A stretch of 64,000 nucleotides of DNA from Amoebophrya sp. A120 (Eukaryota; Protista; Dinoflagellata), in assembly GCA_905178155.1 (NCBI GenBank), contig CAJINV010000015.1, positions 62,001 to 126,000 of the forward strand. The letters run 5' to 3'. This document shows, piece by piece, positions 3,001-45,613 of the stretch (positions are counted from its first letter, which is position 1; every line of letters starts with the position of its first letter). The notes beneath the pieces were generated by a model that saw only the letters and a list, made by a program, of their open reading frames with translations, was not told the origin of the DNA and did not search any database. The translations under genes and the position numbers were made by a program.

Positions 3001-6000
3001 TGAGGGAGGTATTGAGGGCTTCTGCTGCGATCATGCACCATGACAAGAAGCTTCAACACCTGTCAGTGATCGAATGCAACAAGAAATCAATTTTTTTTCT
3101 TTTGTTTCGAAAAAGAGATGTTGAAGCCGCTTTAAGTCGCTTTGAATAAAATCACCTGGTTCACTATACCGTTGTTCCCTTTTCCGCATTCGTCGCAGAG
3201 CTCAACCAGGGATGCGACCGGATTTCTTCCCAAGACGGCGAGCCAAAGGCTAACAGCGCGTAGAAATCGAACGCGTATCATAAGGAAAAATCCCCCCTCC
3301 CCATACTGCAAAGGTATACTTTTTGAAATTTGTGACGCTGATTTGTGGCCACAAATCGCGTCTGTCTTGCAAGAAGGCAACTCCGCAGGCTCCGCCGCAT
3401 TGTGCAGGCGGTTTGTCCTGCTGTTGGACCTACAGCGCGGATATTTTTCATGCTAAGGGCCTAGGCCAAAACCTCTCTACTCACACTTAGTATGGGCCTG
3501 CAATGCTCTCCAGCAAGACAGCTCGGATTTGTGTACACAAATCCAGCATCAGAAATTTCGTTTCGATATGGGGAGGGGGGATTTTTCTTTTCGATAACGC
3601 GTGTGGCGAATACATGGACCAAGCCCACGTTGATGTAGTTCCTTGCCCACCGTCCGGATGATGGTCTATTACAATGAAAAATGGCCCCTCTCCATATCAA
3701 AACGGAAATCTGTGATGCAGATTTGTGGTCACAAATCAGCTTTGTGATTCTAGAAGGCAAAAGATGCGGACTGTAGTGCTGTCTAGCGTGGGAAAGGCTT
3801 GCAGCTCCAGGATGACAGGAGGCAACTGGAAGTGGGAAACAGCATGACAGATCACCTGCAATTTAGGCCGCAGCTTCGTCTCTTGGCCTTCTTGCAATAC
3901 AAATCGATTTGTGTACTCAAATACAGCATCACAAATTCGGGCATCTTCCGTTTCCGATATGGGGTGGGGGCTTTTTTCACTTTGATATGGTCTGATTGTT
4001 CACTAGACACCTCCTCGCCCGTCAATAACAGGCTCATCAGCGATGCAACGTCGTCAAAGTCGACGGAAGTAGCTCTCGATGCTGGTGAAAAGGACTCGCA
4101 GGTCGCAGGTTTACTACTGTACAGGGCATCTTCACTCGGCGTCAACCCCATCAAATACTCTAGGCCGTAGTTGACTAGCAAAATCTGCTTCCCGTTCCGG
4201 ACAAAAACATTGTCCACCGTGATTTTCCCGTGGGGCAGGTTGAAGGAATCATTCCTCACGTAGTCCAGCGTCTTCAAGATTTTGTCAATAATCCGGTACA
4301 CCGATTCTTCTTTAATTGTGCCCCCCGACTGAAACACCTTGGCCAGGTTTTCCAGCAGCGGTTCTGAGATGGAAGCGGAGGAGGATTGTTGGTTTTGCGA
4401 CGGGTGACTCGTCGTTTTCATGGTAGAAGAGGAACTGCTACCGTAATTCCCATTTCCGTAGTTTTCGTACACAAGGTAAAAATACTGGTAGTCCTCGAAA
4501 AAGTCCAACACCTGCACTAAATTCGGATGCTTCACGAAATTCGCGACAATGCTCATCTCCGCCCGAACCTGATCCCACGGCTTCTCCGCGGTTTTCAGAT
4601 TTTTGTTGATCCGCTTGCACCTCCGCTTCATCCGCAGGAACCGATTCGTGTTGCTGACGTAGCCCTTTTATGCATTGCAAAAGTATCGTATTCGTATAAA
4701 TACAATACAAGTTTCTGCAGCATGAGAAATAAAATTTGTAATGCAGATTTGGCTTAAGAAAGGGATTTGTAATGCATGATTGTAATACGAATACGATACT
4801 TTTGCACAGGATACCTTTTCGTAGCACTTGAAGTCCACCGACAATTCGTCTCTTGCTATCTATTACAGTGAAAAGTGCCCCCCACCCCTCAAATGGCAAA
4901 AATTTGTGATGCGAAGTTTCCAAATGAAACCCTTTTGTCATGCATGAAAGGAGTATGAATCTTTCTGATGCAGAGTCTAGTCGTGTATCGCATCGCTTGC
5001 ATGACAAGCGCCGCTCTTGCTGGGGTCTTTTGCAATACAAATTTTCGCTATTCACGATTGGAAACCTGTGATGCTGATAGGTGCAAGAGGGCGAATGTTT
5101 CATTTGGAAAGGTTTGCAATACAAATGCTTTCAAGTTCGGGGGTGGGGGCATTTTTCATTCTGATACTATCAACTCGAACTTCTCGAAGAAATCGTGGAT
5201 ATTTCGGTTGTTTTTCCGTGCGGTTGGATCGTCACTTGATGCGTTATTTGCATCATCGTGGTCTTCCAACGTGGATAGAGGTGACCGCAGATGCGTCATT
5301 TCGTACGTTTGGAATTCCTCCTCTGGGCTCGTGTATCAAATGTAAAAATGTCTGGGTCTGGAAGAATGCGCGATTTGTCATGCAGGTTTTCCATGACCCA
5401 GGAGGTCTGGAATGCAGGACCTAGCATGACAGATTCTGTGCGATCTCTCTCATGCCTATCCTGCATGAGAAACTCCCTCCAGACTTGATCGAAGGTGGAC
5501 AGCTTTTGGCACTCATGCAACACAGATTTTTGCATGATTCGGATTTAGCATGACAAGTTGCAATCTTCCAGACCCAGACATTTTTGCAATCCATATCGTG
5601 TCGTAGCGTAGCTGCCGGAAGCACTTGCGTGTGAAGAATTCCAGCTCCGGGAGGGATTCTATTCGATGGTTTAACATTTTGGAAGAGGAAGTTGGCTTTG
5701 TTCGTTTGGGAGCAGCAGCTCCAAGGTAAGGATGCGTTTTATTTTTACTATTGCTCGAAGTCCACCCGTCATTGCTGTAATACCGCTCTAACACCAGCCC
5801 AGTGGCCTTCTCCGCCAGTATTCTCGGGAACTTCTTCGCCGATGAGAAAGTACTGCTGCTGGAAGAAGAATTCGATTGCTGGTGATATTCTTGTTGTGTC
5901 TCATAATCATTATTCCCGAACTTCGCCTTCGCTACTAAGTACAACAATTGGAAACAGTAGTTCCCAAAATGCTCGATCTTTTGCTCCGACTGCAAAAATT

Positions 6001-9000
6001 CGACCGCGTAATTTTGGAAAAAGTCCGGATGCTTGTTATGACCCGCTCAAATCGGTTACCATCTCAAACGTTACAATAGAATCTGGATTTTGTATTGCAT
6101 GATGAGCATGACAGACCCGCACAGCGTTTCACTTTCTGCAATACAAATTTCGCCAGATTCCAGTTCGGGTTGGAGCTCCAGAACTTGTCATGCGCAATCC
6201 TGTGGGAGTAGGGTAGATCATGCACTTCTTGCATGACAGATTTCCATATTCTATTGTAACCGATTTGAGTATTGTAACGGCTGAGCGGGTTATACTGGTG
6301 CGCAGCGGACCGCGTCAGACTGTTGATCGCGTTCGCATCCGGCTTATGCATTGCAAATATGTCTGGGTCTGGAAGAATTGGAACTTGTCATGCAATTTCT
6401 GGATCGTGCAAAAATCTGTGTTGCAGGATTAGCAAAAGCTGTCCACTCTTGACCAAGTTGAGAGGCAATTTCTCATGCAGGCGAGGCATGATAGAGGTCG
6501 CACAGAATCTGTCATGCTAGGTCATGTATGACAGACCTCGCGCCTCATGGAAAACCTGCATGACAAGTCTTGCAACCTTCCAGACCCAGACACTTTTGCA
6601 ATCCATACGGCTGGGGACCACCAGTCGTGCTGGTGGGAGTAGGCTGCCTATCGATCATCCCTGGTGGTGTCGTTCCGGAATTATAGGAGGCAGCTGCGAG
6701 GGGTTTACCATGCTTCGAACGTGATATGTTGTCCTGCTCCATTTCTTCAATGCGGCTGATTTCCTGGTCCAGCAACAAACTTCCAGTGGCCCCATCCACG
6801 ACGTGGTCTTCGTAGTACAGCGTCGGGGTGGCGACGGAGGTTTTGCTAGTCGCGGCATTGTTGTTCTGGGCAGCAGCAGCAGCTGCTGCTGCTACTACAC
6901 CATTTTGCTCCGCCGCATCGTGGATGTCCTGTAGTTCGCCGTGCGTGATCGCGTGCTGCAGCGCTTCGCTCTGGAAGTGAATTTTCTCCAGATCCCCCGC
7001 CATCGCCTTGGCCAGGGCCAAGTGCTCTTTACTGACCGCATGAGCTGTTCCTCGGGCCCTCCTCTTTCTCGGGATGGCCGGGTTGTTACTGTGAGGAGAC
7101 GTCGGTGACGGATTGTTGGACGTCGCCTGGTCTACTTCTGCGCCGGGTAGTGGTACTGCGGCTGGAGCAACATCCTGTGGCAGCTCCTTTGAAGACTGGC
7201 TTTGATGTCCCTTCGAATGACTGTCGTCGTCATCTTCACTGACCATTGCTGCCCGATCTTCGGCTTTCTTCTGGTTTTGTTGCTCTGCTCTCAGCTGTTG
7301 TAACTCAGCCTCTGCTTTGTCTAGCGCCGGCTCCAGGCTGGAAACCAGACTGTCAACAACCTCCGCGTGTTTCTGACTAACCCGATTGGTCGGTTGACCT
7401 TCCAACATCGCTTCCGACGCATGGCGGTACAGGACCTCGATTTGCTCAATATGTTCCGAAACCGCAACGATGTGTGAAAGCCGCTCGTGGTTTGGTTTTT
7501 TCGGCGGTGCGACGTCCTGCTCTTTTGGTGAAGCCTGTTCGGAGGTATATGATTTGATGGAGTTCTTGTAGAATTCTGTACCCATGAGCGCAAACATGAC
7601 AATATCACAAATCATGGCGTATAGTACAATCATAAGTAATCTTCAAAATAATCAAAAAACTCTTATCACAAAATCCTATATATAATACCAACTCGCCCTC
7701 GACTTTTTTGGTCTTCCTAGCCGGCATCACTGTTTTCACCGTCAAACTGCTCTGCAACAACGGTGGTGCCTCGAGAAACGGCGAGCTAACGGAACTTGCC
7801 TTGCTATCCGACTTCGATATCCGGAGTTCCACCGGCTCCAAAGCGATCGGCTGGTGCAACACCGGCACGGGTTCTTGTGTTTGCTGCTGCTGCTGCTGTG
7901 CCGGGGATGGCTGTGATTGGTTGTTTCTCGGATCAACATTGGGCGTTGGGAGAGAGCTATTCGGAGGCTGTGGCGCAACACCTCCTCCGTACTGGTACCC
8001 AAGAGCAGCTGCTGCAGGTCCTAGCACCGCTGCACACGCCCGTGGCGACGCCACCAGTGCGACTTTGGGCGAGGTCGGCAACAACCTCTTCGGCAGCGAC
8101 ACCGCATGATCTGTGCCCTGCGGTCGCGGCGACAAATTCACCAGTTTCGTGTTCCCGCCCTCTCGGAAATCCACGACACCGCGTAAATTCTTCAAACTGG
8201 ACTTATCCTGTGCAAAAGTATCGCACTCGTAGTAATTGCAGTCATGCATTACAAATTTTTTTCTTAAGGTAAATCCGCATGACAAATTTTATTTTTTTCT
8301 CATGCTGGGGAAATTTGTAATGCATTTATACGAGTATAGTACGATACTTTTGCAGTTCAAAGGACCGGAGATTCTGCAATTCCGGACTTCGGGACCGGTA
8401 GATCCTGTCGAGCTTCTCGTCGATGTTCTGCTTTAGCTGGTCGCTGGAAAGTGCGTTTCCCTGCCTGAGCCCCAGCGGCCGCACGAGCTCGCGGCCGCGG
8501 ATCGGAAATTGGTTACTATCCACCGGCGGACGGGCCGCGAGCGTGTTGGAGGAAAGCCACAGAGTTGGATCGACCGGGATCACGTTTTCGGGTTTCAGCT
8601 TCAAAACATTCGTCCTTTTCTGTTCGGTAGAAGTTGCAGCTGGGGGTAGAGGACCTTGGCTTGCTGTTGCTGCTGCTCCTGTTGCAGCAGCTCCAGTTCC
8701 TACTTGTTGTTCTGGAGATCCACGCGTCCCTATCGGCTCCTCACCGGGCGACACTGGCGGCTTCGCTTTCACAAACTGCTGGCCCGTTGTCCCGCTGTGC
8801 GCGGACGACCCTGCAGACCGATTAGAAGAGGGCTTCGATGTTGCCACTGGTTGTTCCATCTGCTGCTCTGGAGGAGCAACCGTAGTAGTGTTCGGTAGCT
8901 GCTGCAAACCAACCATAGGTTGCAAATTCGCCAGATTTACCGGGGTCAAAAATTGCGGCACTGGGATCGTGTAAGAAGTCTGCGGCGGTTGCGATTGTCC

Positions 9001-9959: not shown

Positions 9960-11389
9960 CCGCATATCCTTCCCTCGCCCAACGTCATCCGACCCTGGTC
10001 TCCTTCTCGACTTCGCCGTAAACGGCTTTTTCAGATTATGCAAGAAAAAGACTATGTGAGTGTAAGTCTGTGATGCAGAAATTGCAAAACTGTTACACTT
10101 GTCATGCTGGATGGGCGTCATAGGCTGCTATCATACGTGTTTCCACGTACTAGCTGCACATGGCAGGTTTTCCCTGTAATGCAAAGCGAATCCCTGTAAT
10201 GCAGTGCTGCTCTTCCAAAAAAGTTACACTTACACAGTTTTTTTTCTGGATACAGATCTTGCGCAGGGGTCGTCGTATCCTTGAACAAGGTTATTCCGAC
10301 CGTTGGCATTTGCGACGGAAGCATCTGTCCCTCCTTTATCAAAATAAAAAATCCCCCCACCCCATATCAAAATGGAAATCTGTGATGCGGGATTTGTGTA
10401 CACACATCGGCTCTGTGTTGCAGTAGAGGACTGCAGCCAGGCGCACAGCCTGAGGAGGGGCGTTTTGGTGTAGGCACCTAGCAAGGCAGGCACATCCTCT
10501 ATAGGCGATACAGCATTACAAATTGCGTGCACAACGCAGCGGAGTTTCTGGAGTTGCCTTCGTGCAATACAGAGACGATTTGTGGTCACAAATCAGCATC
10601 ACAAATTTTCAGGAGTATACCTTTTTAGTATGGGGAGGGGGGATTTTTCATTTTGATATCCTTCGACCCTTGTTTATTCGCGTTCAGTGCCTTGATCATG
10701 TCAATCTCTTTCGGCACAAACAACTCCAAACTGCTTAAACTCGGGGCCACATACTGCGGACTTTGCGGAAGGTACGGCGGGTCGCGGGTCGGCCGCCCGC
10801 GGTTTTTCAACAGCGTAGTGGTGTATTTTATAAGATCTGCTGGAAGCTGTTCGTCTTCTGTAGACGCGGATTTAATATTACCGGCTCCTGACCGCTGCTG
10901 CTGATTTGGATTTCCGCGATTTGCTGGTGGCTTCTTCTTCGAAAGTCCCACACGACCTCCGGGTCTGCTTCTCTGACTATTGCTACCGGTAGTCCTGGAG
11001 GAGCTTGTTGTTCCAGCAGGGCCTGCGATTGTTCGTGGTCTAGTAAAGGAAGAACTACTGCTCGACGTTGGTCCGCCCCCCGGCGCCGCAGTTGCAGTTC
11101 TCTTTGCAGTTCTGATTGTTGCAGAGGAAACAACCGGCTGGCTCGTCGCGACGCCGCGCGCGGAGGAACCCGGAGATGTTCTAGCAGCCCCACCCCGTCC
11201 CGGCCTTGTGGAAGTTGGCATTGCGCCCGTCGTGGCCGCACTGGTTTTAATCCGGTCCGATTTCAGCTGCGGAGTCGCACGGCCGGCAACCGCCGAAGCG
11301 CCGGTGGGGCTCAGTCGACGTTGTGCCGCACTGGACAACATGGTGCCGGGTGGTTTGGCACCACTTGTGGGGATAATACGTTTGGACAT
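9960..11389 (-). CDS. Ser/Thr/Arg-rich exons, either the 5' part of the pseudokinase gene or a separate hypothetical gene
   Basis: ATG at 11389 (MSKRIIPTSG...). Frame is kept across elements 10337-10658 and 10037-10252. The link to the ORF starting at 9636 is unresolved. Confidence 0.5.
10037..10252. mobile_element. TIR introner, family E
   Basis: TAT..ATA, TSD CAGAT. Confidence 0.88.
10337..10658. mobile_element. TIR introner, family B
   Basis: TAT..ATA, TSD TCCTT. Confidence 0.9.
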
Positions 11390-16201: not shown

Positions 16202-18187
16202 TCATTTGTCGCTTTTGTTACAACAACTTTTCACGATGTTGCTGCTGCTATTTGCCGACTTACCTTGTTCGTTCCCGGACACTTCCAGCCGGCGAAGCAT
16301 TTCTTCTTGAAAATCCGCTGTGCCGTCCGAACTCTTGTCGTCGAAACTCGTGTTGACAGTGACATCGGGTGCCGCTCTCTCATGCATTGCAAATATAATG
16401 TCTGGCGCGTCTGGAAAATTATCATGCTCGCTGATGAATGCCCACGAATTGAGGTGCGTCCAGGTCTACAAGAAAATGCATGACAGAACTCAGGAATATT
16501 ACCGATGGTCGTTTTCAGCATTACAAATCTACCTACAAAAAAATGAATCTTCCACACGAGGATGCCGACATGTTTGTGATGCATAAAAACCTGCTAAAGT
16601 AGAACTATTCCCCGCTGGCCGGAACAGTGGCAGAAAGCGCGTTCGGTTTTCCGGGTCGACAAGCAGTGTGTGACCGCTCGAGCAGGACGAGCTAGTATCG
16701 TGTCTGTCACACATGATGTGCTCCGGCTGTAGTTCGTTTATCCGCATGCCGAGATAAGAACTAGCTGTACCAGCGCGACGACCAGCGTTGTGGCGGTGCA
16801 GCGCTTCCGCGGTGAGGCCGAGGGAAGTAGAGGATGGCTGGTCATGGTTTAGTACTTCGTCGGAGGACAACATCTGGTCGCCCGTTCTTTCGACGCCGAA
16901 GCAGGGATTGTTTCCTTCCTCTGTCATCTCATTATCTCCCCAACGGGGCCGCTTTGGCAGTTGGGGGTCCTCGAAATTATTACCCACCAACAGGCTCCTG
17001 CACCGCTTCCTCATCGACGGCACTCCAGAACCAAGCCACGGCGCAGACATTTTTCTCCCGTCCGAAACATCAAACGGATAAGGAGCGAATTCTCCACTCA
17101 AGCGGGGGCGTTTGGAGGACGTGCTGCCTGGGAGCATCAGGTGACGAGGTGGTGGGCTGGTTCTACTCAAATTCGTCTCATCACGAGCTGCCTCGGCGTC
17201 GGAGGATTGCGCTGTGGCGTGTAACAAAGCAGGAGTAGTGCTGCTAGTAGAATTCGGCGAAGACAGCGACAAGCCGCTGCCCATTTGTTCAACTGCGTTA
17301 GTATCAAAACGCCGGAACAAGGAGGTTGCGTTTTTCCTTTCGAAAAGCCCGGACGAGGACGAAGCTCCTGGAAAAAAAGATCGCTCCTCTTGCAGAAAAG
17401 GTGATAAAAAACCACCACTGTTGGTGGTATTCGTATTGCTGGACTGGTGGTAATCGTTATCCTGAGTAAAAACGTACCCACACCATAGTCAAGATGGGGA
17501 ATCGGCTAGACAAATCCACAAGTTTTGTCTGTTTTGCATGACAAATTTGGATTCGTAGTGTAGTGCTGTTTGAGCTAGCTCAGCAGCATCACAGATCTAG
17601 CATACCATGCTGATTGGAGCATGACAAATTGCAAAACACGACTAGAAAATGCTTCTCATGGGGCTCCGCATGAGAAACATATTCAGCATGCAGATTTGCA
17701 TTACAACTCTGGTGTGGGTACGTTTTTACTCAGGATAATCGTCATACAATGTCTGCTGCTCGTGGGACGAGGTTGAAGAATCGTAGTACAAAGATGTTGT
17801 CGCTGGAAAATTCGAAGACGGTCCGCTCATGACAGGTGGATTGAAATTTTCCTCAGTCGTGGACCAGTTGATGTGGTTCTGAAGAAAAGAAGACGGCTTC
17901 TTGTCCTCCCCGAGCGGGCGCCAAAAGAACACGTCAGGGGACATAGTGCCGGAAGACGACCTTCGGTGGCGATCTTGATTCAAGTCCTGGTGCTGTTCTT
18001 CGGGAATGCGGGGTAAAATCTCGCCACCATGAGGCGGCTTTGCTTGTTTTTGATGTAACAACAACGAAGAGATTTGGGTCTCTACGTCAGGCACCTGTAT
18101 CAATGAAGACATGAACAAAGACCCTGCCACAGCAGGTGGCATGTAGGTAAATGTCGTTAAAAAAGTAACTTTTGGGAGGAGCAACAT
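16202..18187 (-). CDS. Hypothetical low-complexity protein, 3 exons
   Basis: ORFs 17726-18187, 16529-17320 and 16202-16387 join in one frame after removing 17458-17737 and 16381-16585 plus 5 nt each. No recognisable domain. Confidence 0.6.
16381..16585. mobile_element. Degenerate TIR introner, family A
   Basis: CAT..ATA, eroded TIR, no TSD; +5 removal keeps frame. Confidence 0.65.
17458..17737. mobile_element. TIR introner, family C
   Basis: TAT..ATA, TSD ATCGT. Confidence 0.9.
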
Positions 18188-20032: not shown

Positions 20033-23000
20033 TCAGCTCTCAACCATCACACTATGCTCAGCCGGATCGTAATGCTGTGAAGCGAAGTCCTCTCTTTCAC
20101 CCCGACAGAAATCGCCTTGAGAAGCAAAAGAAATCCCGCTCGGATTTTTAGGAAAAACATCGCCGACGACCGGAGAAACAGCGTTGTTTTCGCCTCCTGC
20201 TGTTGTTCGTCTACTAGGGTAGTTGATGACAACTACATCTCCCGGAGACGTTGAAGTCAGGGCCGAGGTGGACGCAGGCATGTCCGTAGCGACACCAACC
20301 CGCGATGGTGCAGCTACGGTAGAAGAAGAGCCGGAGGCTGAAATGTGAATGTGGTCGTTTTCAAAGTGCTGCCGGTCGCTTTTCCGCACCAGCTTCCGCT
20401 TCCGATTCTCCCGGGATTTACTTGCTTCATCATCTTTCTTCAGGTTCTTCAACCCTGGTGCAGCTGTGGTTGTGGTACTTGCGTTTTGATCCTCAGGACC
20501 CGCCGGCAGTCGTCCCTGCTTCGCCCGCTTGGCGGTTGGAGGTAATTGCAATGGCAGCTGGTCGTCCTCGCGGTTGTGGTCCGCAGGGTCGACGAGGTTC
20601 TTTCCGGTGGCTTCCTTGCTAACGCTGGGCCCAGCACAAAAATCTCGACTGCGCCGCGCCACCTCGTCCTCCGCTCTCAGCTCGGCTAAACGAGCCAATA
20701 TGGCCTCACCGTCGTGATCAAAGTTGTACGGTGACGGCGCTGCGCCTGCACCTGTTCCTGCTCTGGTGCAACGGATACTGTCGAAATGACCTGACTGCAC
20801 CGCACTTCCTTTCAGAAACGGGTGGCGAAGATTTTTACTGGGCGGTGTGTGAAGAAGGTGATGCTCCTCGTCGTAGTTGTGGAGTTGCAACCTGCCAGGA
20901 TTTGTTCTTTTTTCGTTGTAATTGTGATCGTGTTCATCTGCGAAGTTGTTGTTATCGAGCTCCTCCTCGTCCCCATAATACATGTACGACAGTGCTGGCG
21001 GGACCATAGTTGCACATGCCGTTCCCGCCAGATCAGCATGTGAAGTGGCTGCGCCAGTGCTGGAAAGATCGTCTTCTGCCATCCCGAGCAATTTGGGACT
21101 CCGATGCATCTTGAACGGAAACTGGCCAGACGCGTCTGTCAATAACTCCTGCTTGTTGTGAGATTGTGTGCGCTTGTTTATTTTCTTGTGTTTCTGGTCC
21201 TCACGGCGGTATTTTTTCTGACAGTTGGAGTGTATCAGCCGGCCGCCTGTATCAGCTATTACGCCGGGATGATGAATTTGCTCCGTCGCCCGGTAGTTCT
21301 GGAATTCGGGGCGGACCAGGAAATTGCGCTTCTTGTTATGCTGTTGCGCCACACCAAAGCCATACTCATCTTCCTGTGGACCAGTTTCCACCTCTTCGTC
21401 GCTCGATTCTAAATTCATGCTCTTCAAAATCGATGCGAGTTCGAACTCATCCTCAGTCGGAGGCCCGCCCGCTGGTGTTTCGGGGGTCGGACCGCGTGGA
21501 TGTAAAAGCAGTCCGCGCTCGACGTCCAGAGGCAGCTGCAACGGGCTTGCTCCAGCGACTCGTCCTGCAGCGAAAGTACTAAAAAGCGGGCTCTCAGCAA
21601 CATCCTCATCTACTTCAGCATGATGTTCATAATCCATTTCGGTCCTATATTCGGAGGCCCGGCCGCGGGCTCTCAAAGTGAAAAAAGCCCCCGCCCTATA
21701 TTGAAACGGAAATTTCTGTTGCTGGATTTGTGTACACAAATCAGCGCTGTATTGCAGCAAGCGCTTGCACACATTTCCTAAGCCTGATTTGGTATGCCAA
21801 AGGCTAGCACTCAGGCATGACAGACATGGTCGCAGTAAGCAAAAGCGCATGACAGCTTGGCTGTGGAATGCGCCACACGGCTCCCATTTGCCTCATATGA
21901 AAGACAAAGCTGACTTGTGGTCACAAATCACCATCACAAATTTCCATTGTGAGTGTGGGGAGGGGGAGTTTTTCCAGACTTTATTCAGTCTTCTGGTCGG
22001 GGCAAGGGAGAAATCAAGTCCAATGGCACCATGCACAGGCACAGCCAGACAGTGGCAGTGCGGGACACTGCGATAAAATGTAAACCGGCTCCTACGCGCA
22101 ACGACAACGCTCGCTAGGCGAGGCTGTAACAAATGGAGCTTGATGATGAGGCGAGATCGAGAGCGCTTGCAGTTGCAGTTGCGCTCCTAGATGATGTGGT
22201 GAGAAAATTATGGCGACCTGACGCAACAACACTGAACGAAAACGGAAGCCCCTGCGTCTCAATCTATACATGGAAACAGGTGACGTCGCTAAGTTTAGAG
22301 TAGTCATATACCTGTCTTTTCGGGCTGGTCAACAACTGCAGGCAGAATTCTGCTTCCGGTTCTTCAGGTACAGGCCGAGTACAATCTTCCACCGCGACAG
22401 CGTCGAACTATGGCCGGGCGGTATGGCTTTAGCCACGAAAACAGCTGGCTAAAGCCAGTGCTCAGGGGGTTTATTTTTGGCAAAGTGTCCTCATCTACTT
22501 CAGCATGATGTTCATAATCCATTTCGGTTGTACAACTCGTCGCCTGTCCACCTCCCCCACGCTGCCGTAGAATCTGGTCCAAGAGGAGCGGTTGCTTCGT
22601 TCTAGGGTGTTGCAGGAACACCGTCGAAGAAAAGGGATCTACTTCGTCCAAGGGGCGTGATGAAGCTGGTTGGATGGAATTCATCCGGTTAGCTGTCGGC
22701 GCCGACGCCACGACAGCACCTTTGCCTGCAACAGAACTGGGGCTGCGCATTATCGTACGGAAAAATCCCCCCTCCCCATATCAAAACGGAAACTTGTGAT
22801 GCTGATTTGTGGCCACAAATCCGCTTTGTATTGCAGAGAGGCACTGCGGCCAGATCCCCAGGCTAGGTAGGGGCGTATTGCTCTAGTTGTTCAGCATGGC
22901 AAACGACTCCCCTTTAGGCCCAACAGCATGACAAATCGCTTCCATATGGGGCGGAAGGTTCTGCCCTTGTCTCCTTGCAAGACAGATGTGATTTGTGACC

Positions 23001-23777
23001 TCAAATCCGCAAGACAAATTTTTGGAAACATACCTTTTCAATGTGGGGAGGGGGGATTTTTCCTCTCAATACGCATGCCAATTTGGCTTTTCGTTCGCGA
23101 AAGGGGCGTGAATACGCGGCTGTGAATATCAAAGTGAAAAAAGCCCCCACCCCATATCGGAAACGGAAGATGCGCGAATTTGTGATGCTGCATTTGAGTA
23201 CACAAATCAACTTGTATTGCTAGAAGGCCAAGAGACGAAGCTGCGGCCTAAATCGCAGGCAATCTGTCATGCTGTTTCCCGCTTCCAGTTGCCTTTTGTC
23301 ATCCTGGAGCTGCAAGGCTTTCCAACGCTAGACAGCACTACAGTCCGCATCTTTTGCCTTCTAGCATCACAAAGCTGATTTGTGACCACAAATCTGCATC
23401 ACAGATTTCCGTTTTGATATGGGGAGGGCGCATTTTTCATTGTAATAGTGAAGATAGAACTGGTCGTGATCATCGATTTCTGTCGCCCCGACACGCTGCT
23501 GCCCGAATAAATGCTGCTCATGTGGAAAGAGCACTCGGCTTGAAGGAGCCTGAGAATTATCCTCCTTTCCCTGCTGGTGCGGGGACAGGAATAAGGACCG
23601 ACTCGCAGTAGAAGCGGTGGTGCACAGGGTGTTGTTGAGAAAGAGGCTTGCGCCAAGTACTAGCCTTGCGATAGGACCACGACGAAAAACAGCCCGCGCA
23701 GAGGAAGACCTTTGGTGAAGAGGCTGCACACAATGTCCTTGCCGAAGGCTATCTCCTGGTCGCAACATTTTCATCAT
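20033..23777 (-). CDS. Hypothetical protein, multi-exon (structure of 22130-22440 unresolved; could be two genes)
   Basis: Long ORF 20033-21670 plus upstream exons kept in frame across elements 23127-23447, 22751-23071 and 21671-21983. Confidence 0.55.
21671..21983. mobile_element. Degenerate TIR introner, family B
   Basis: TCT..TTA, no TSD; +5 removal keeps frame. Confidence 0.7.
22751..23071. mobile_element. TIR introner, family B
   Basis: TAT..ATA, TSD CGCAT. Confidence 0.9.
23127..23447. mobile_element. TIR introner, family B
   Basis: TAT..ATA, TSD GTGAA. Confidence 0.9.
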
Positions 23778-24890: not shown

Positions 24891-27800
24891 TCACCCGTGC
24901 CCACTGCACCTTTCCCAGGTTGCAACGATGTTTTCTTTCGCGTCCTCGACAACCAAACTTCGATACTGATGACACGCCGCGCAGGAATGGAACGGCGCGA
25001 TGGTGATCACGGTCCCCACTGGGTACTTTGCGGCTAGATTTATTTTCATACTTCTAGGAGCTTTTTTTCCCCCGCCTTCCTCGTCCTTCACCACCACTTC
25101 CCCCGTCTCCTGCTTGATATTGTGAGGAACAATCCCCCCTCCCCATACCAAAAAGCGGCACTACTGAAAACTTGTGATGCTGATTTGTGACCACAGATCG
25201 TCCCTTTATTGCCAGAGGGGAAAGCCAGAGAATCAGCCGCGTTTCGCAGGCGCTTTGTGATGCTGGATCGCCTACAGAAGACATGCCTGCCTTGCTAGGT
25301 GCCTACAGCAAAACGCCCCTACTCAGTCGCTGCATCTGCCTGCAGTCCTCTACTGCTAGACAGATTGGATTTGTGTACACAAATTTCGCATCACAGATTT
25401 CGGCTTTGATATGGGGAGGGGGGATTTTTCACTTTGATACTTGAGGCTCTTGATTTTCAACTCCGGGTGCGACAGAATTCTGCCGTAATTCACTTCCGCC
25501 CCCTGCGTATCAATCGCAAAAATGTCTGGGTCTGGAAGATTTTAGGACACGTCATGCAGGGTTTGCATGACCCATGAGGTCTGGAATGCGGGACTTAGCA
25601 TGACAGACTCTGCGAGGTCTCTGCCATGCCTATTCTGCATGAGAAACTCCGTTCCAACTTGGTCAAAAGTGGACAGCTTTTGGTACTCACGCAACACAGA
25701 TTTCTGCATCATTCAGATTTAGCATGACAAGTTGCAATCTTCCAGACCCAGACATTTTTGCGATTCATATTGCGCGGACATGCCCGTCCAACCGCAGTCG
25801 ATCAGGAGTTTCTCTTCGTAAATCGATATCACCGTCGCTTTCACAAAACACGCAACGTCAGATATCAAAAGGAAAAATCCCCCCTCCCCATATCGAGACG
25901 AAGTTTCTGATGCTGGATTTGGATACACAAATCAAGTCTGTGTTGCAGTAGAGGACTGCACGCGGATCGTAAGCCTAGGCAGGGGCCTTTTGGTGTAGGC
26001 GCCTAGCATGGTAGACGGCCGCCCTGTTGGCCTTCCAGCATTACCAAGCGCCTGCATAACGTGGCGCACAGCCTGAACTTGCCTTCCTGCAAGACAGACG
26101 CGATTTGTGGTCACAAATCTGCATCACAAATTTTCAGACGGATGCGTTTCCAATATGGGGAGGAGGGATTTTGCCTCACAATATCGGAAATGTCGCAGCT
26201 TTTGATCAAATCCGCCTGCTATCAAATGTAAAAATGTCTGGGTCTGGAAAGTTGGAACTTGTGATGCTAACTTTGGACTCTAAAAAAATCTGTATTGCAT
26301 GACCAGCAAGAGGAGCCACATTTGTGCTAGGCGAGGAGGGCATTTGTCATGCGGAAGTGGCATCAGGAAGCTTTCCAAAAATCTGTGATGCTGGGTCATG
26401 CATTACAAGCATCATGGGTCATGCCAGACAAGCATGACAAGCCTTCCATTCTTCCAGACCCAGACATTTTTACATTTGATACCTGCATCTGGTCGAAAAA
26501 GAGGTAGGATCAAAGTGAAAAATCCCCCCCTCCCCATATCAAACTGGAAATCTGTGATGCTGATTTGTGGCCACAAATCACTTTTGTCTTGCCGACAGGG
26601 CAACAGGAGCCCTGTGGCGCATTCTAAACCCCGTCTGTCATGAGCTTTCGACTACTGCAAACCTGTTTGCTATGCCTAATTGCTAGCCTTCTGCATACCC
26701 GAACAGGCTTGGAAATAAATACCGCCAGGCACTTTCTGCAAGACAAATCTGATTTGCAACCACATATCAGCATCACAAATTTCCTTTTCGGTATGGGGAG
26801 GGGGAATAATTTTTCCTCACAATAGGTAGTTCCCGCAATGGAGCTCCGTCAGTTTAAACACTTTCGGCTTGTAGTTCGGATTTATCCGACTGATCGCCGT
26901 TGGTAAAAATGTTTTCCCTTGTAGCGGTAGATACCTATTCGGAATCTCGAAACTGCAGCTGGGCGTGCTGCCGATGGTGATTTCGGGGAATTCGAATTGG
27001 TCACAAGTTTCGTACACCCGCTTGGCAAACTCCACGGCAGTCGTTGCTTCCTCGACAAACGCCTCGACGCACTCCTTCTGCGTTTGACAGCTGTACGCCG
27101 GGGCTGCGTGGATGTAGATCCCGTGTAGTGTGAAGGATTTTGGGTTTGCCAGTAGAAATCGCATCAGATCCAATGCCTCTTCTCCCTCCGGGTTTAACCC
27201 AGCCTGGTGCATCTGCAGTGGCTGATGTTGTTGTTCGAGGTGGTCTTGATTTGGTTTCTTGGCAGCAACAGTACTGCCGCTCTTTCTCTTTGATGATGCT
27301 TCTTGCTGTGAAGCTGTAGATGATCTTCCCCCGACCATAACATAGACGGACAGCTTCTTCGTTATCTTCGCTTTTTTCACCAAAAACTCCGCTTGCTGCA
27401 CGTGATCGATTAGGAAGTGCACAACCTTCTCCTCCGGTGTTTTTTGCTGTTCCGTATTATTAACCTCGTCCTTCTTCCGCCTCTTTGGTGATGAACTTGA
27501 TTCCCCCTTGTCTGGTAGTACTTCCTTCGAAGATTTTGAAAACAAAAACGGCTGCAGAATCTCGCTTTTCACCTTGGAAACCGGAAAAGGAATCGCGTAG
27601 ATCACGTCCGTGAAGTTGTGCCTATTCACGTAGAAATCCAATTCCTGCAACGTTGACACGATGATCGTGGATCTCTTCCCTCCGGTTTGCAGCAAAGCGT
27701 ATGGCGGTCTCAGCTGTTACATTCTCAACTGTTACACGGATTTGTCATGCACAATTGCCATTAGCCTCCACTTGATCAAGGTGCTTAGCATGACAAACCT

Positions 27801-28080
27801 TCGAAGGGCTAAACAGCATGATGATCTGTGGAAAATCTGTGATGCGAAAGCTGCAATATTGGCACTTTCACTGTTGCTGTTTTTGCAATACAAATCCATG
27901 TAACAGTTGAGAATGTAACGTTTGAGAACGCCATAAAGCGCCCTCCAACGTTTTGTGCGTCTTGACGTGCGGACGGAAGTTCAGGTCGAGTTTCTTGCAC
28001 TTGTCCAGCATCTTTTTTGCGTTTCGCTCCGCGGTCGGGAGGCGGACCACGCAGGCGGGGGTGGAAAGAGACGAAGGCAT
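24891..28080 (-). CDS. DSD1: D-serine dehydratase / D-threonine aldolase family (fold-type III PLP enzyme), 7 exons
   Basis: STPACVV, FRPHVKTHKT (PLP lysine), GIYIHA, ITIGSTPSC, ELHCGNYLFFDQMQ, VKATVIS...LLIDCGWTGMS, LKQETGEV, IAPFHSCAA. Motifs are continuous only after removing six elements plus 5 nt each. Confidence 0.88.
25118..25439. mobile_element. TIR introner, family B, in DSD1
   Basis: TAT..ATA, TSD CTTGA. Confidence 0.9.
25508..25769. mobile_element. TIR introner, family A, in DSD1
   Basis: TAT..ATA, flanks CTGCG/TTGCG. Confidence 0.9.
25863..26183. mobile_element. TIR introner, family B, in DSD1
   Basis: TAT..ATA, flanks TCAGA/TCGGA. Confidence 0.9.
26220..26481. mobile_element. 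TIR introner, family A, in DSD1
   Basis: TAT..ATA, TSD CCTGC. Confidence 0.9.
26508..26824. mobile_element. TIR introner, family B, in DSD1
   Basis: GAT..ATA, TSD GGTAG. Confidence 0.88.
27700..27935. mobile_element. TIR introner, family G, in DSD1
   Basis: ~37-bp TIR TATGGCG..CGCCATA, TSD AAGCG. Confidence 0.9.
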
Positions 28081-29134: not shown

Positions 29135-30246
29135 TTACATCACGTCCTCGTCATCAGATGCCTGGGTTGACACGGTTTCCGCCACGGAAGCGTATCCAAT
29201 GCAGAACGCCGGGGTCTGGAGAAGCTAGATTCTCCATGTCTGGCGATTTCTTTCAAAGATCTTTATTGCTTGGCCGACAAATAACCTTCAGCTTTATACT
29301 TGTGAGGCTTGTCATGCAAGTAAGTAGGACACAACATCTTGAAGAGTTGCCCGCCAGACACGACGCAGCGTCTTTCATGCCCTTTATGCCCGGCTGCATT
29401 CTTGGCAAAGAATCCAACATCGCAAGCTTCCAGACCCTTGCAACACTACTTTCTCTGCAGCGGATAAGCAGCGGCCGCGGTCCTTTTTCACGTCCTCGTC
29501 CTCCTCCACGGCCTCCTGGACCACCTCGAGATCGTGCGTGTTCTTGTCTAGCGATCCGCGCCGGATCGCTGCCGCTTCTTCCGTACGGCGCGCCCAGCGC
29601 TCGAACGCGAGTGTGACTAGGCACCTGCGCGGCGTTGCCGGCTCCGGCGTGAGGGCGATGGATTCGGTCATTTGCAAATCGTCCACCCAGTTGCTTTATC
29701 AAATGCAAGAGTGTCTGGGTCTGGAAGGATGTAACTTGTGATGGTGCATTTGGATTCTGCAAAAATCTGTATTGCATGATCAGGTAAAGAGTCCCAACTT
29801 TTGCGACAGCGGAAAATCTGTGATGCTAGGGCATGCATCACAGACATCAGGAGTCATGCGAAATGTGCATGACAAACCTTGCACCCCTCCGGACCCAGAC
29901 ATATTTGCATTTGATATGCTTTTCTCCAGTGTTCCGCGATTCCTGTTGTAAATTGCAAAAATTAGGTCTGCAGTTCAGGGCAGATGCAACTTGTGGCGCT
30001 TGCGCGTGAATACTGACAAAAATCTAGTGGTTTTCTTTCAATTGTACATGGGAATAAAACGCAACTTACTGTCCTGTTTGCCAGGAACAATGAGAATTCG
30101 TTTCGAAACTTTGTCATGCATTTAAAAGAGCTTCGGGTATCCGCAAATCACCATCACAAATTCCCTGTCTCAGACATCTTTTCAAAGCATACAACTTTGG
30201 ATCCGACACCGGCAGGACAACGAAGTTGTTCACTTTCTTCTCCTGC
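29135..30246 (-). CDS. Hypothetical protein, 3' exons (5' end unresolved, possibly up to ~30800)
   Basis: QEKKVNNFVVLPVSDPKL/NRGTLEKS/NWVDDLQMTES...DRGRC/SVAETVSTQASDDEDVM* reads through three elements under the +5 rule. Confidence 0.5.
29193..29466. mobile_element. Degenerate TIR introner, family A
   Basis: TAT..ATA, GGGTCTGGA/TCCAGACCC core, flanks AAGCG/AGCAG. Confidence 0.65.
29697..29916. mobile_element. TIR introner, family A (internally deleted)
   Basis: TAT..ATA, TSD TGCTT, 220 bp. Confidence 0.88.
29947..30191. mobile_element. Degenerate TIR introner, family A
   Basis: TGT..ATA, eroded TIR; +5 removal keeps frame. Confidence 0.55.
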
Positions 30247-31942: not shown

Positions 31943-34900
31943 TCATTCGTCGTAAAACGTCGCCCCCCGTGGCTGTACGTACGCCCCACCCTTTATCCAA
32001 GAAAAAAACACCATCGCCGTCACATTTAGGAGGTTTTGCATCAGAAATTTGGCTCGCATGACAAATTTTTATTGTATTGCAAAAACACAAAGGGAAATCG
32101 TCTATAAATCTTGACTGTGATGCATTTTTGCGCATGACAAAAATTTTTGTATTGCAAAAATGTGCAAAAGTGATTGTGATGGTGTTTTTTCTTGAATACC
32201 CTTCTCGGTTTGGTAGAAAATCAGGGAAAATCGTTGGTTTTTCATTGCTATGAAGTGCAAAAGCATCGCACTCGTATTGATGCATTACAAATTTCCTCAG
32301 CATGAGAATGTAATGCGGATTTACCTCAAGAAAAAGATTTGTATATGCATGACTGCAATTACTACGAATGCGATACTTTTGCAGTTCATAAGTGCCGTTC
32401 GCTGCTTCAGGTGCCGGGAGAGGAAGGAATTGCAGTCGTCTACATCTTCTTCTTCCTGTAATTCTCCCTCTTTAGAACTATCGTTCCTTGACGATTTCTT
32501 GGATGCTTGGTCCGTTTGTTTCGCCGTCCCCTTATTTTCACCGGGTTCTCCCGGTGCAGCTGATCCTTGTTTCGGGCCCCACTTCGCCACAAAGTTCTTG
32601 GCATGGGCCGTCGCGGCTGAGCCGTCTGCAAGACAACTGTGAGCATCTGTATTCCTGGGTTCTTGTGTGCCCGCATAGGAGGTGGTGTCCTCGGACTATC
32701 ACAGCGGAAAAAGCTGTAGCACGACGGCATCTATGCAGCTACTCGTCCTACTGCGTAGTTCACAAAAATGCGAAGAATATCAGTCGCGGTCGACGTTCCA
32801 TGCTGTAGTTTTCATCTACAGTGACATACTTTCACGTTGTCGTGCGGCACGACGTCGTAAAATTGAGTCATGGAAGTCATGGCAACAATTTTTTCTGCAA
32901 AAAAATTCTGCAAAAAATAGCGAAAACTTTTCTTTGCAATCGTGCGCGTCGTTCTACATCTTCTCTGTGGGATACGTTCCAACCTTCCACCCAATCGGCC
33001 ACCCAGTGCACAAACCGGCCGTCGATTTTCGCAATCCGGTTGCGCGTATTCACTACCGCGACTTGCCGGCTGCACTTCTCGACGCAAATCTCGCCGCCCT
33101 TGAAATTCCCAACCGATATCGCGTAGAAGTTTCGCTTGTTCTTATCCTGAGTAAAAACGTCCCCACACCAGAGTTGTAATGCAGATTGGCAAAGACAGGA
33201 AGACTTGTAATGCTCATCCCCATGAGAGCCATTTCCAATCGTGTATTGGAATTTGTGATGCTGTGAACAGGATGAGCAGATGAGTCTGTGATGCCGCTGC
33301 ACTTGCTGACCTGCACTACACTGCGGAGTGCAACTTGTCATGCGTGACTCCCAAAACTCCTAGGTTTGTGTTGCAAAATCCCCATCCTGACTCTGGTGTG
33401 GGTACGTTTTTCCTCAGGATAGTTCTGGTGGTCGATGTGCGGCGAGCCCTGGAAGTTGTGGGTGACCGCGAGCTGATCCCAGTGCTCCGTCACAAATGCC
33501 AAATCCGCGCCGTTGTTGTACTTGGTCAAGGCCGAACGCAAAACGATTTCCGCCAAGGCCCAGATGTCGCGCTTCAGGTCAATCAGTCGGTTGTTCGCAC
33601 AGTGCAGGTTGTTCCGACAGCTTGGGTCCCGCAGGTGGCGGGTCGCGTTGGCCATAAACAATTTGATTTCTTCCGCCTCTGACATTTTCACGTCTTTGTG
33701 GGACACGATCATGTAGTGTTCCGCGTCGACGCTGGGTCGCTCCCGTTTCCGGTTGGGATGGAAGCGGTCCTGGAAGCAAACCCAGTCGATTAGTAGTTCC
33801 AGCAGCTGGTCGCAGAGGTACTGGGGAACCGCAAGATCTGCCGGTCCCTGGAGAAAGATACGGTCCCGTCTCGGGCCGCCGGCGTCTTTAGACAGATTGT
33901 CTTCAACACCATCCTCGTGGTCGAAAAACTGCGAGATATGACGAGGATTATTGCTTTTTGGACGGTCTTGTTGGTTCTGGCGACGAAGAAATTCCAGGAA
34001 CGAATTGACTTGCTGAAACGGCGCAGCAGGAGCACTTACTGTAGTCGTCGTGGCACTTCTACTGCTTGCTGATCCAGTAGCACCACTTCTTGCCGAAGAT
34101 GAGGATGAGGATGAAGAGGATATTGATGTTGGTTCAACATCTACCTGAAAAAAAGTACTATTAAACTGACTTCTCCTTGCTTCCAAATCGGCCGGAGTTC
34201 TCCAAATCAGCTCGCTCATGTAGCTCTTCAGCAGCAATTCCATGGCCTCAAAGCGCTCCATATCCAAGGAAAAAAGTGTTACAGTTACACATTTGTAGTG
34301 AATTCAGCATCACAAATTTGCCTCGCATCACGCCGAAAACTTGTAATGCAGAGATCATAAGGCAAAACGCACACAAAACGAGACACGCATGCATTTTGCG
34401 CATGACAGAGGTCGTCTGTCTTGCATGTTTTGCAACACAATGGGTAACTGTAACACTTTTTTCTTTGCATACTCGAAACCCTCGATCCACTCTTTCGCCT
34501 GGTCATTGACTTCGCATACCGCCGATCGTTCGGCCGCTTTCGCCTTTTCGGTGATCTTTTTCTGCGGAACGGGTGCTTCGATCGTTTTCCACCGTTGGAT
34601 CTTGTAATTGGAGGACTTGATTTCCAGTAGCTCCGAACCAAACAAAAGCAGCTGGTCCTTTTGTTCGCTCGTCAGCGTCATTTCGTACTTTTCCTCGTAC
34701 ATCCGTAGCATGTCCACCAAAAACTCGAAGAGTGCGTGCTCAGAGAAAAACTTGTCCTCGATCAGCCGCCGCTTCAATTCCTTCGTGGCAAGCGGCTCTA
34801 GTTGCGCGCGGAGGGAATTCGAATCCCGGTCGGAGGGGCGGAGGCCGTTCATCTGTCCAAAGTAGGAGAGCTTGATTTGGAGGGCGCGGGGAGGGCAGTC

Positions 34901-43358: not shown

Positions 43359-45613
43359 TCACCGGCGAACAGGAAGACACGGAGCTCGAACTGCTCGCGC
43401 AACTGCATTCGGTATGCACTGCAAGTATGTCTGGGTCTGGAAACTTGTGTTGCTCCTGCTACTCGCATGGTAGATCGCCCACTTGCGCGGCATAACATCA
43501 TCAGAAGTTTTGCGAGCCTTATTGCAGACTGATTCGTCTTCAGATGCAGGACAAGAAACTGAGTTTCACAGCACAAAAAAAGGTGGCAATTCGTATCGAT
43601 GCATAACAGATCAAGATCATCTCCTTGTCCGCTTCGACTTTCGCATCACAAATTCAGACTCAAAGACATTTGTAGTGCATATTCGGATTCCCGCCCGAGG
43701 GGTGCGATGGTGGAGAGGTCCGTCGTACTCGTTTTCTCCGCAGCTGCTGACGAAATTCCTCCTCCTATCCTGAGTAAAAACGTACCCACACCAGAGTCAG
43801 GATGAGGATTTTGCAACACAAACCTAGGAGTTTTGTGAGTCACGCATGACAAGTTTCAGTCCGTAAGGTAGTGCAAGTTAGCAAGGAAAGCTGCATCACA
43901 AATCGACCTGCTGATCCTGTTCACAGCATCACAAATTCCAAAACACGATTGGAAATGGCTCTCATGGGGATGCGCATCACAAATGTCTTTGTCATTGCAA
44001 ATCTGCATTACAACTCTGGTGTGGGTACGTTTTTACTCAGGATACCTCCCCGGGCCTCGGCCGCCATCGCTAACAGGGAAGTAGTGATGGAGAACGGAAC
44101 CACATTCATCATATCGGTGTTGCCGCCATCATATCAAATGCAAAAATGTCTGGGTCTGGAAGATTGCAGGAGTTTGTCATGCATCTTCTGGATCACGCAA
44201 CTGGTCTCTAATGCACGCAAAAGCATTACAGGTTTTGCGCAGGCCTTCTGATGTCTATCCCGCATGAGAAATTCCCTATTTGCGTAGCAAGAAATGGGAA
44301 GCTTTTGGTGCTTCTGCAATACAAATATTTGCCTATTCCAGAATTCGCATGACAAGTTCCAACTCTTCCAGACCCAGACATTTTTGCATTTGATACATCA
44401 TTTTCGGAAGAGATGAACACGAGCTCGTCGTCCCCAACCACCGGAAATTTCCCTATCAAATGTAAAAATGTCTGGGTCTGGAAGAATGCAACTTGTGATG
44501 CTGCATTTGGATTCAAAAAAAATCTGTATTGCATGAGTACCAAAGGGAAGGCAATTTTTGCTCCGCTGAGAAGGCATTTGTCATGCGGAATAGGCATCGG
44601 GAAGCCCTCAGAAAATCTGTATTGCTAGGGTATGCATCACAGACATCATGGCTCATGCAAAACGTGCATGACAAGTGTCAGAATCTTTCAGACCCAGACA
44701 TTTTTACAGTTGATATTCCCGGGACACTCCTGATTCAACACTTCCGTCACGGCACCACCGGCGTCGAACAGCCGCGGCGAGCCGTTAACCCGCCGCGGCA
44801 GGGCGGGCAAAGTGGGAATCGCATCCTCCTCCTCGTTATGCATTGCAAAAATGTCTGGGTCTGGAAGAATGCAACTTGTGATGCGCATTTCAGAACACAG
44901 AAAAATCTCTCATGCATAGGTAGCAAAAGCTGCCCACTTTCTGTCACCAAAATGGGGGATTTTTCATGCGGATTCGGCATTGCGGAAGCTTCTCCAAACC
45001 TGTGATGCTAGAGCTTCCATGCCAGACCTTGTGTGTCATGCAAAAACAGCATGAATCTTCCAGACCCAGACATTTTTGCATTTGATACTCGTCGTCGTCA
45101 TCCCACGAGCCGTGCGGGAGGAAAATCGCGGCAGGGAGATCATCGTCGCGAAGGGAGAGGACGTTCTTCGGTTTATTGTGAGGAAAAATCCCCCCTCCCC
45201 ATACCGAAAGGGTATGCTTACAAAAATTTGCGATGCTGATTTGAGACCAAATCCTGCGTCTCTTGCAGGAGGGCAAATCCAAAGAATCCGCCATCTTATG
45301 CAGGCGATTTGTAATGCTCTTACGCCTACATGGCAGGCCTCTGCTATGCTAAGCACCTACACCAAAACATCCCTAAGCAGGCTGAAAATTTGCCTGCAGT
45401 GCCTCACTGCAATACAGAGCTGATTTGTGTACACAAATGCAGCAACAGAAATGTCCGTTTCAGTATGGGGAGGGGGGATTTTTCACTTTGATGCGGTTGT
45501 TGTGCTTCTCCCAGTTCTCCATTGTTGTTCTTCTTGTTCTTTTCGTTGCAATTCCGCAGCTGGGGCAGCTGCAGCTGGGGCTTCATCTCGTTCTCCTGTT
45601 TTAGGGAAGACAT
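43359..45613 (-). CDS. Hypothetical protein, 7 exons
   Basis: ATG 45613 to TGA 43359 is one open frame after removing six elements, each with a perfect 5-bp TSD. Confidence 0.7.
43413..43681. mobile_element. TIR introner, family A (diverged)
   Basis: TAT..ATA, TSD TTCGG. Confidence 0.85.
43766..44044. mobile_element. TIR introner, family C
   Basis: TAT..ATA, TSD CCTCC. Confidence 0.9.
44132..44395. mobile_element. TIR introner, family A
   Basis: TAT..ATA, TSD CATCA. Confidence 0.9.
44454..44715. mobile_element. TIR introner, family A
   Basis: TAT..ATA, TSD TTCCC. Confidence 0.9.
44837..45087. mobile_element. TIR introner, family A
   Basis: TAT..ATA, TSD CTCGT; close relative of 59179-59430. 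Confidence 0.9.
45174..45493. mobile_element. TIR introner, family B
   Basis: TAT..ATG, TSD CGGTT. Confidence 0.88.

Follow-up and report, generated by a model that had tools for sequence, protein, structure and literature searches.

Introner elements of Amoebophrya sp. A120 lie in both orientations within genes and appear to be cut out in a polar register

How can one and the same mobile element act as an intron whichever way round it has landed in a gene? The question is raised by a 321-nt element at positions 23127-23447 of the window, that is, the whole 64-kb stretch of Amoebophrya sp. A120 DNA that we analysed and to which all our counts are confined. This element carries imperfect terminal inverted repeats of the form TAT...ATA and is flanked on either side by an identical 5-mer (left copy 23122..23126, right copy 23448..23452), a perfect target duplication. 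A preliminary description of the window had reported that the element is close to the reverse complement of 3667-3987 and 53103-53430, and that 25118-25439 is inverted relative to 10337-10658. These coordinates proved right and the inverted relation was upheld when the copies were aligned as proposed there, for whole elements and trimmed interiors alike. Indeed, the global identity of 23127-23447 to the reverse complement of 3667-3987 was 0.95 (0.68 forward, over the whole element) and that to the reverse complement of 53103-53430 was 0.91 (0.67 forward), with 0.82 (0.66 forward) for the pair 25118-25439 and 10337-10658. After trimming of 70 nt per end, the interiors matched only as reverse complements (0.93, 0.86 and 0.80, versus 0.57, 0.56 and 0.61 forward and about 0.51 for shuffled sequences); the inversion is therefore no product of the palindromic ends, an artefact that these trimmed alignments rule out.

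Judging from the sequence, the elements of the window are the introner elements already published for A120 (Farhat et al. 2021, PMC7789003), with which they share the organism, the TAT motif, the repeats, the mostly non-GT-AG borders, the repeated occurrence and the removal. That paper describes inverted repeats composed of TAT, seven variable bases and at least three A, together with direct repeats of 3-5 nt, and already contains a hairpin model, the non-canonical borders and a transposon-like spread of these introners. It reports that >60% of the ~66,000 A120 introns are non-canonical, leaves their mode of removal open and treats border positions as variable or unknown, the legend of its Fig. 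3 calling splice positions variable. A term search of its main text and supplement legends turned up no discussion of element orientation; in the matches listed, 'orientation' refers to gene blocks and gene order. Relative to that text, what is added here is a balanced use of both orientations and a polar excision register of 1 nt and 4 nt.

A catalogue of the elements and their orientations

The scan behind our catalogue looked for arms that pair, carry TAT...ATA at their ends and lie next to a repeat; it demanded a duplication of at least 3/5 and at least 5/6 terminal matches, and three elements from contigs were added. The catalogue comprised 61 elements of 142-328 nt, a set from which three weak candidates (39684, 42734 and 51859) had been removed. 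For the tests of element ends n was 63, namely the 61 plus 51859, restored as a decayed element, and 35021; these 63 elements make up 26% of the window. A damaged element at 21671 was counted among the 49 family copies described below and lies outside the set of 61. The 5-nt direct repeat was perfect in 44 of the 61 elements and matched at 4/5 in 13, at 3/5 in two, at 2/5 in one and at 0/5 in one, a low tail that is under-counted because the catalogue demanded at least 3/5. A duplication of at least 4/5 was thus present in 57/61 elements, and 17/61 duplications were decayed; repeat lengths of 4 and 6, tested likewise over the catalogue, gave no comparable peak.

The terminal repeat fits TAT followed by seven variable bases and at least three A, with T, A and T in 60, 60 and 59 of the 61 elements and A in 57, 57 and 59 of them at positions 11-13. 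With inverted ends, a constant 5-nt duplication and insertion regardless of the direction of transcription, the elements share features with MITEs and other TIR DNA transposons. Aligned copies shared no flanking letters and carried neither a poly(A) tail nor long terminal repeats. Families that otherwise differ have in common a sub-terminal motif of the TTTGTGATGC / GCATCACAAA type, which also has CATGACA variants and is possibly a binding site of the mobilising enzyme.

Clustering grouped 49 copies into 10 families with zero orientation conflicts among the edges. The orientation splits (A and B below) were 7/6, 4/6, 3/4, 3/1, 3/1, 3/0, 2/0, 1/1, 1/1 and 1/1, and 8 of the 10 multi-copy families were found in both orientations. 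The majority orientation accounted for 31 of the 49 copies versus 32.5 expected from coin flips (P=0.83; a small bias would be undetectable at n=49), so the sense and antisense count that the preliminary description had called for genome-wide, here confined to the window, gave no sign that either orientation is depleted.

Family 1 is represented in orientation A by 5334..5595 and 25508..25769 and by further copies at 13075, 44132, 50775, 51504 and 52357, and in orientation B by 6345..6607 and 55313..55573 and by further copies at 26220, 44454, 44837 and 59179; 5334 and 6345, both in the kinase gene and in one reading frame, are 83% identical as reverse complements. In family 2, the A copies are 25118..25439, 57466..57788 and, from catalogue and clustering, 3276..3596 and 45174..45493, and the B copies are 10337..10658, whose removal leaves an open frame, 22751..23071, which shares its gene with 23127, 25863..26183, 52686..53009, 54926..55251, placed by clustering, and 55636..55956, which shares a reading frame with 57466. 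Family 3 has A copies at 57143..57421, 17458 and 43766 and B copies at 33143, 53495, 57899 and 59934. The element at 23127 is an orientation B copy of family 4, whose A copies lie at 3667..3987 (in the kinase gene, with an open frame once removed), at 53103..53430 (with a mismatched duplication) and at 58247..58560 (placed by clustering, with contigs giving flanking pieces only). Family 5 includes 32249..32390 with 4669 and 56912, and 8204 as an inverted copy. Further elements are an old one without a matching duplication (16381..16585), a single-copy one (29193..29466) and two decayed single elements with weak arms (51859-52042 and 35021-35327), in which the spacing of element plus 5 nt holds by reading frame or by the annotated protein P0004. 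The sequence 51859-52042 contains a trinucleotide run.

Within 37675-39337 and 42529-43316, the window also holds larger direct duplications that bear no relation to the short elements: one of ~440 nt has its copies at 37675 and 38923, the other, of ~790 nt, at 38124 and 42529. Further repeats lacking TAT...ATA ends were seen at 39745-40383, as three tandem copies of ~210 nt, and as two pairs of 170-205 nt at 46771-46975 / 49683-49889 and in the 47069-47468 region.

Host genes and absence of the elements from RNA-like contigs

All host genes had been assigned to the minus strand in the preliminary description, and long minus-strand frames, Pfam-matched exons and A120 proteins agree with this assignment. 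Removal of each element together with 5 nt opened minus-strand frames of 985 aa across 14 elements, 855 aa across 7, 663 aa across 5 and 504 aa across 6, and in the window's genome the host genes are broken unless the elements are taken out; plus-strand frames across elements reached a maximum of 229 aa (among frames of at least 110 aa). The gene that hosts 23127 and 22751 (22364..23777, minus strand) encodes 253 aa of no known family; across the two joints the minus frame alone is open, versus a best plus frame of 93 aa, and it corresponds to the annotated A120 protein P0006. A search of 1.84 billion representatives returned no convincing relative of this protein, the matches being itself and one weak repeat-type sequence. 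The gene containing 25118 is D-serine-dehydratase-like (24894..28080, minus strand, 479 aa, start coordinate approximate) and hosts six elements, a protein-kinase-domain reading frame at 3167..7642 (minus strand) hosts seven, and a long reading frame with a 1205-aa stretch at 52035..61204 (minus strand) was obtained after element removal and from contigs.

Pfam matches on minus-strand exons were to kinase, APG6 and D-serine dehydratase, with a match of any kind in 8/25 exons. Three window exons were 100% identical to proteins source-named Amoebophrya sp. A120, and spliced reconstructions reproduced three A120 proteins letter for letter (479, 717 and 253 aa), annotations that themselves depend on RNA data. 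A homologue from another source, 46% identical, aligned straight across the junctions of 25118, 25508 and 25863. Opposite orientations occur within a single reading frame at 5334/6345, 55636/57466 and 57143/59934, and the result is therefore independent of gene strand; a host gene on the plus strand is excluded by these mixed frames together with the minus-strand frames, the Pfam matches and P0006.

Several other features of these genes were noted. Two copies of a 41-nt coding stretch (21603-21643 and 22488-22528) lie at a distance of 885 nt, one in the 253-aa gene and the other heading the long downstream minus-strand frame; between them lies the damaged family copy (~21671-21985), without a clear duplication, and contigs break at the 41-nt repeat. 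Upstream of the 253-aa gene, a tandem array of ~34-nt units occupies 23872-24156, and a ATATCAAA stretch in these units resembles the element ends. A long minus-strand gene shows frame changes at 61204-61262 and 61911-62197 where introns are needed and no catalogued element fits. The Atg6/Beclin gene contains a GT-AG intron at 12354-12497 (minus strand, donor approximate).

Removal of the elements was followed in the RNA-like contigs X1-X3, which come from one sample, whose RNA status is a guess and which show neither strand nor level. Element plus 5 nt was skipped at 28 of the 32 elements examined, in both orientations. Between 9600 and 29500, X1 and X2 contigs skipped exactly this length at 13/16 elements, including 23127 (joint 23121 to 23448, in both X1 and X2), 22751 (22745 to 23072) and 25118 (25112 to 25440), after exclusion of three repeat cross-mappings among the matches listed. 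Between 52150 and 58620, where junctions were taken from exon-piece coordinates and verified by arithmetic, 15/16 elements were skipped, and a single X3 contig of 7932 nt lacked all 15 elements between 52351 and 58176, with record offsets equal to the exon sums exactly. No joint was among the matches listed for 10037, 10337, 17458 and 58247, which does not imply retention. Every exon-to-exon joint listed omitted element plus 5 nt; the +5 rule invoked in the preliminary description thus holds for these joints as it does for the duplications. Both orientations were skipped in family 1 (A: 13075, 25508, 52357; B: 26220, 55313), family 2 (A: 25118, 57466; B: 22751, 25863, 52686, 54926, 55636), family 3 (A: 57143; B: 53495, 57899), family 4 (A: 53103; B: 23127) and the pair 12818 / 56658. 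Removal of the elements from the RNA-like contigs in both orientations is supported by these joints. Run X5 behaved like DNA, reading on from exons into elements, and the raw RNA reads X9 and X10, from two other samples under the same species label, matched element parts only and no exons. At 13252-13326 (X9) and 17487-17540 (X10), element sequence was joined to foreign flanks in ~170 reads each; these are transcribed unspliced copies at another locus or in another strain.

A contig from which element plus 5 nt has been deleted looks like an empty site too, and X1-X3 are called RNA by guess, so that the skipping contigs might represent the DNA of a strain with empty sites, which would leave splicing and register unsupported. 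We regard such a strain as having a very slim chance of being the explanation, because the listed exon pieces are almost without differences despite the decay of 17/61 duplications, and because one X1 piece terminates precisely where the GT-AG intron of Atg6 has its acceptor (12353). The lack of 15 elements from one contig and the broken state of the window's genes unless the elements are excised likewise stand against it.

Cut register, end signals and predicted structure

A perfect duplication hides the position of the cut, and a mismatched one reveals which copy's base reaches the mRNA. With k as the count of left-copy letters retained on the plus strand, k was exactly 1 for 16381 (X2 joint 16376 to 16587), at least 1 for 25508 (25503 to 25771), at most 1 for 29193 (29187 to 29467), 52686, 53103 (X2 joint 53097 to 53431), 55313 (55307 to 55574) and 57466, and at most 2 for 25863 (25857 to 26184). 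The annotated protein P0004 was compatible with k=0 or 1 only, P0001 did not discriminate between registers, and for the family 5 copy at 32249 an annotated protein implies a k of at most 1. On the assumption of a single register, k=1 fits all 8 contig junctions and P0004; the lower bound comes from just two of these junctions, and some copies may have k=0 while others have k=1. The intron appears to be N-TAT...ATA-NNNN, with a single nucleotide ahead of the 5' TAT and 4 nt behind the 3' ATA leaving with the element. For 23127, the inferred intron is 23123..23448 on the minus strand (326 nt, that is, 1 nt, the element and 4 nt in transcript direction), with its register borrowed from other copies because its own duplication is perfect; the length itself is shown by the joints.

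If the element itself set the cut, k would be 1 in one orientation and 4 in the opposite one, but in family 2 it was at most 1 in both (57466 in orientation A, 52686 in B). These two copies contradict a cut tied to element orientation, and the cut therefore follows transcription. Since the 1/4 cut lies in transcript direction in both orientations, the chemistry would be polar and the signal alone two-sided, and under the single-register assumption excision has the polarity of spliceosomal introns. The proposal in the preliminary description that recognition is symmetric and structure-based thus held in part: the signal is two-sided and rod-like folds are plausible, but the cut is polar, 1 nt and 4 nt as set by transcription. 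The implied premise that intron polarity forbids introns that work either way was too strong, as such introns have been published for the introners of Aureococcus and Polarella.

Under k=1, positions +2, +3 and +4 are T, A and T in 60, 60 and 59 of the 61 elements, and positions -7 and -6 are A and T in 61/61, with a 3' consensus TTTGATA (RNA UUUGAUA), in a catalogue that itself demanded 5/6 terminal matches. The introns begin with GT in 21/61, end with AG in 7/61 and have both in 4/61, and so depart from the U2-type GT(or GC)-AG pattern; relative to exon background, neither G at +1 (22/61, P=0.11) nor terminal AG (7/61, P=0.22) was enriched. A branch-like motif showed no strand excess (YTRAT in 22/63 transcribed versus 21/63 antisense strands, TRAT in 29 versus 23), and conservation of the terminal triplet was not significantly polar (exceptions 5' versus 3' of 2/6, 1/0 and 2/0; P>=0.27). 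The conserved ends could serve the needs of a transposase alone, because neither a strand excess nor significant polar conservation was seen and because of the 5/6 threshold; the strand tests on structure and motif are weak, however, because a symmetric element fits either model at birth. The Atg6 intron opens with GTAT and closes with TGAT plus four more bases, with A at -6 and a 3' side one base shorter than in the introners; no second GT-AG intron could be placed in the window (n=1), too few for a consensus.

Long rods were predicted for 23127 (-140 kcal/mol, z -7.7) and 3667 (-112.8 kcal/mol, z -6.4), with both strands folding, and the predicted terminal pairing probability exceeded 0.5 in 50/61 elements on each strand. 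The arms were paired in 54-60 of the 61 elements at positions 1-3 (59-60 at positions 2-3), in 28-41 at positions 4-8 and in 49-59 at positions 9-14, and the outermost bases of the predicted 3667 fold were unpaired. On the transcribed strand, G-U pairs showed no excess over A-C pairs (81 versus 68, P=0.33), and no excess of stability was found, this strand being the more stable one in 27/61. Structure-based recognition is plausible from these predictions. Nowhere in the window did the sequence reach the gathering score of an Rfam covariance model (group I/II and others; 0 matches).

Insertion, excision and related systems

We favour, with a probability of roughly 0.6, the reading that A120 introner elements insert at the DNA level and that a modified U2-type spliceosome excises them, recognising their two-sided ends with polarity. 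A transposase or integrase supplied in trans would make a 5-nt staggered cut, blind to the direction of transcription. Either strand of the inserted copy would then fold as a long rod in which, by prediction, the two ends meet and pairing over the outer 4-8 nt is loose. The element would take with it 1 nt from the upstream duplication and 4 nt from the downstream one, exactly restoring the original coding sequence; this register is taken from the 8 contig junctions and one annotated protein, with a single register assumed. The 5' arm would act as the donor, N-UAU, like canonical GUAU with a relaxed first base, and the 3' arm would supply the branch A at -7 within the UUUGAUA consensus, the acceptor being set by distance and not by AG. 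Both signals would be present whichever way the element lands, because an end that reads TAT on one strand reads ATA on its complement. According to Farhat et al. (2021; PMC7789003), A120 retains 83/89 spliceosomal proteins as well as U2, U4, U5 and U6, with U1 undetected. This retained machinery speaks for the spliceosome reading, as does the resemblance of the Atg6 GT-AG intron (n=1) to the introners at its start and end; G at +1 and terminal AG at background level, and a branch-like motif equally frequent on the antisense strand, count against it. It is tempting, if still somewhat doubtful, to think of a U1-less spliceosome tuned to the inverted ends, with N-UAU as donor and the other end as branch site, the acceptor lying 6 nt downstream. 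Both the use of a spliceosome and the formation of a lariat are putative for these introners.

Integrase-type enzymes typically leave duplications of 5 nt. Together with the unbiased orientation, the 5-nt duplication argues against reverse splicing and suggests that a transposase or integrase inserted the elements as DNA, and so favours the spread by DNA transposition that the preliminary description had put forward; no transposase was found among the 25 window exons scanned against Pfam. A spread through RNA, either by reverse splicing of excised introns or by retro-integration through an LTR-type integrase, would suit the length of the duplication, and it gains something from a reported A120 family that combines inverted ends with homology to Copia/Gypsy (PMC12130899) and from the text of PMC7789003, which reports no transposase in A120. 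However, reverse splicing predicts sense-only copies without a duplication, at odds with the balanced orientations and the 57/61 duplications of at least 4/5; moreover, what moves is TAT...ATA, whereas what is excised is the element with 1 nt and 4 nt added, flanks are unshared, and the aligned copies lack both a poly(A) tail and long terminal repeats. We therefore consider an RNA intermediate improbable, even if integrase insertion of a cDNA copy may be compatible with the window data.

Excision could instead, as the main rival reading has it, be measured on structure, by analogy with euglenids: a separate or altered machine would read the rod and cut 1 nt and 4 nt outside it, blind to sequence, and TAT/ATA would then serve the transposase only. 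This is the nearest to the idea of the preliminary description, yet it is polar. Both strands are predicted as rods with terminal pairing above 0.5 in 50/61 each, GT and AG are at background and the branch-like motif has no strand excess, all of which would fit such a machine, as would the failure to detect U1 in A120 (PMC7789003) and the unequal offsets of euglenid stems (+4..6 with -8..-6), from which circles are released (PMC11282704). We nevertheless judge it clearly less likely than the spliceosome: arm positions 4-8 are paired in just 28-41/61 elements as against 59-60 for positions 2-3, the outermost bases of the 3667 fold are predicted unpaired, neither the G-U pairs nor the stability of the transcribed strand points to selection on the RNA fold, and the poor-armed 51859-52042 still keeps the additional 5 nt by reading frame and its 3' ATA.

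The A120 elements can be set beside several described systems. Introners of Polarella glacialis occur in either orientation with target duplications (Roy et al., bioRxiv 10.1101/2020.10.14.339549), and either-orientation introners are known from Aureococcus anophagefferens (Huff et al. 2016, as cited in bioRxiv 10.1101/2020.10.14.339549 and PMC10228655). These resemble the A120 elements in their derivation from DNA transposons, their target duplications and their service as introns in either orientation. Their GT/GC/GA and AG are supplied either by the element or by its duplication, and the preprint (10.1101/2020.10.14.339549) reports a bias to one orientation in these classes, whereas in A120 GT and AG are at background, any 5-mer is apparently tolerated and no bias was seen in 49 copies. 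The nonconventional introns of euglenids (PMC11282704, PMC11170887) share with the A120 elements inverted ends, duplication-like repeats, the lack of GT-AG, unequal stem offsets and a probable MITE origin, but their terminal motif and offsets differ and their product is a circle. The introns of Giardia duodenalis use [G|C]TATGT as donor, and their branch point is merged with the 3' end, so that the spacing is short and constant (PMC10711314), a model for the proposed N-UAU donor and distance-set acceptor; unlike the A120 elements, they are immobile, lack inverted repeats and end in AG. MITEs, finally, are likewise short, non-coding, dispersed in both orientations and bounded by inverted ends and a fixed-length duplication; the A120 elements differ in being removed precisely from RNA.

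The elements themselves, and either-orientation introners elsewhere, are thus already published. What appears to be unreported is that the A120 elements work both ways without bias, without GT-AG and in a polar 1/4 register; in the literature searched, figures and subscription papers aside, we found neither orientation counts nor a fixed register for A120. That these elements spread by reverse splicing is contradicted directly, at the level of the genome, by the balanced orientation and the duplication, which also show a route by which a transposon can pass both the orientation filter and the GT-AG filter that limit other introners. A single register makes the question of splicing in A120 testable and would allow its intron borders to be re-annotated. 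If a U1-less, end-tuned spliceosome is indeed at work, any insertion, into any 5-nt target and either way round, would become a perfectly excised intron. In that case tens of thousands of non-canonical borders would reduce to one rule, N-TAT...AT-N-NNNN, and insertion into exons would be nearly free for the element.
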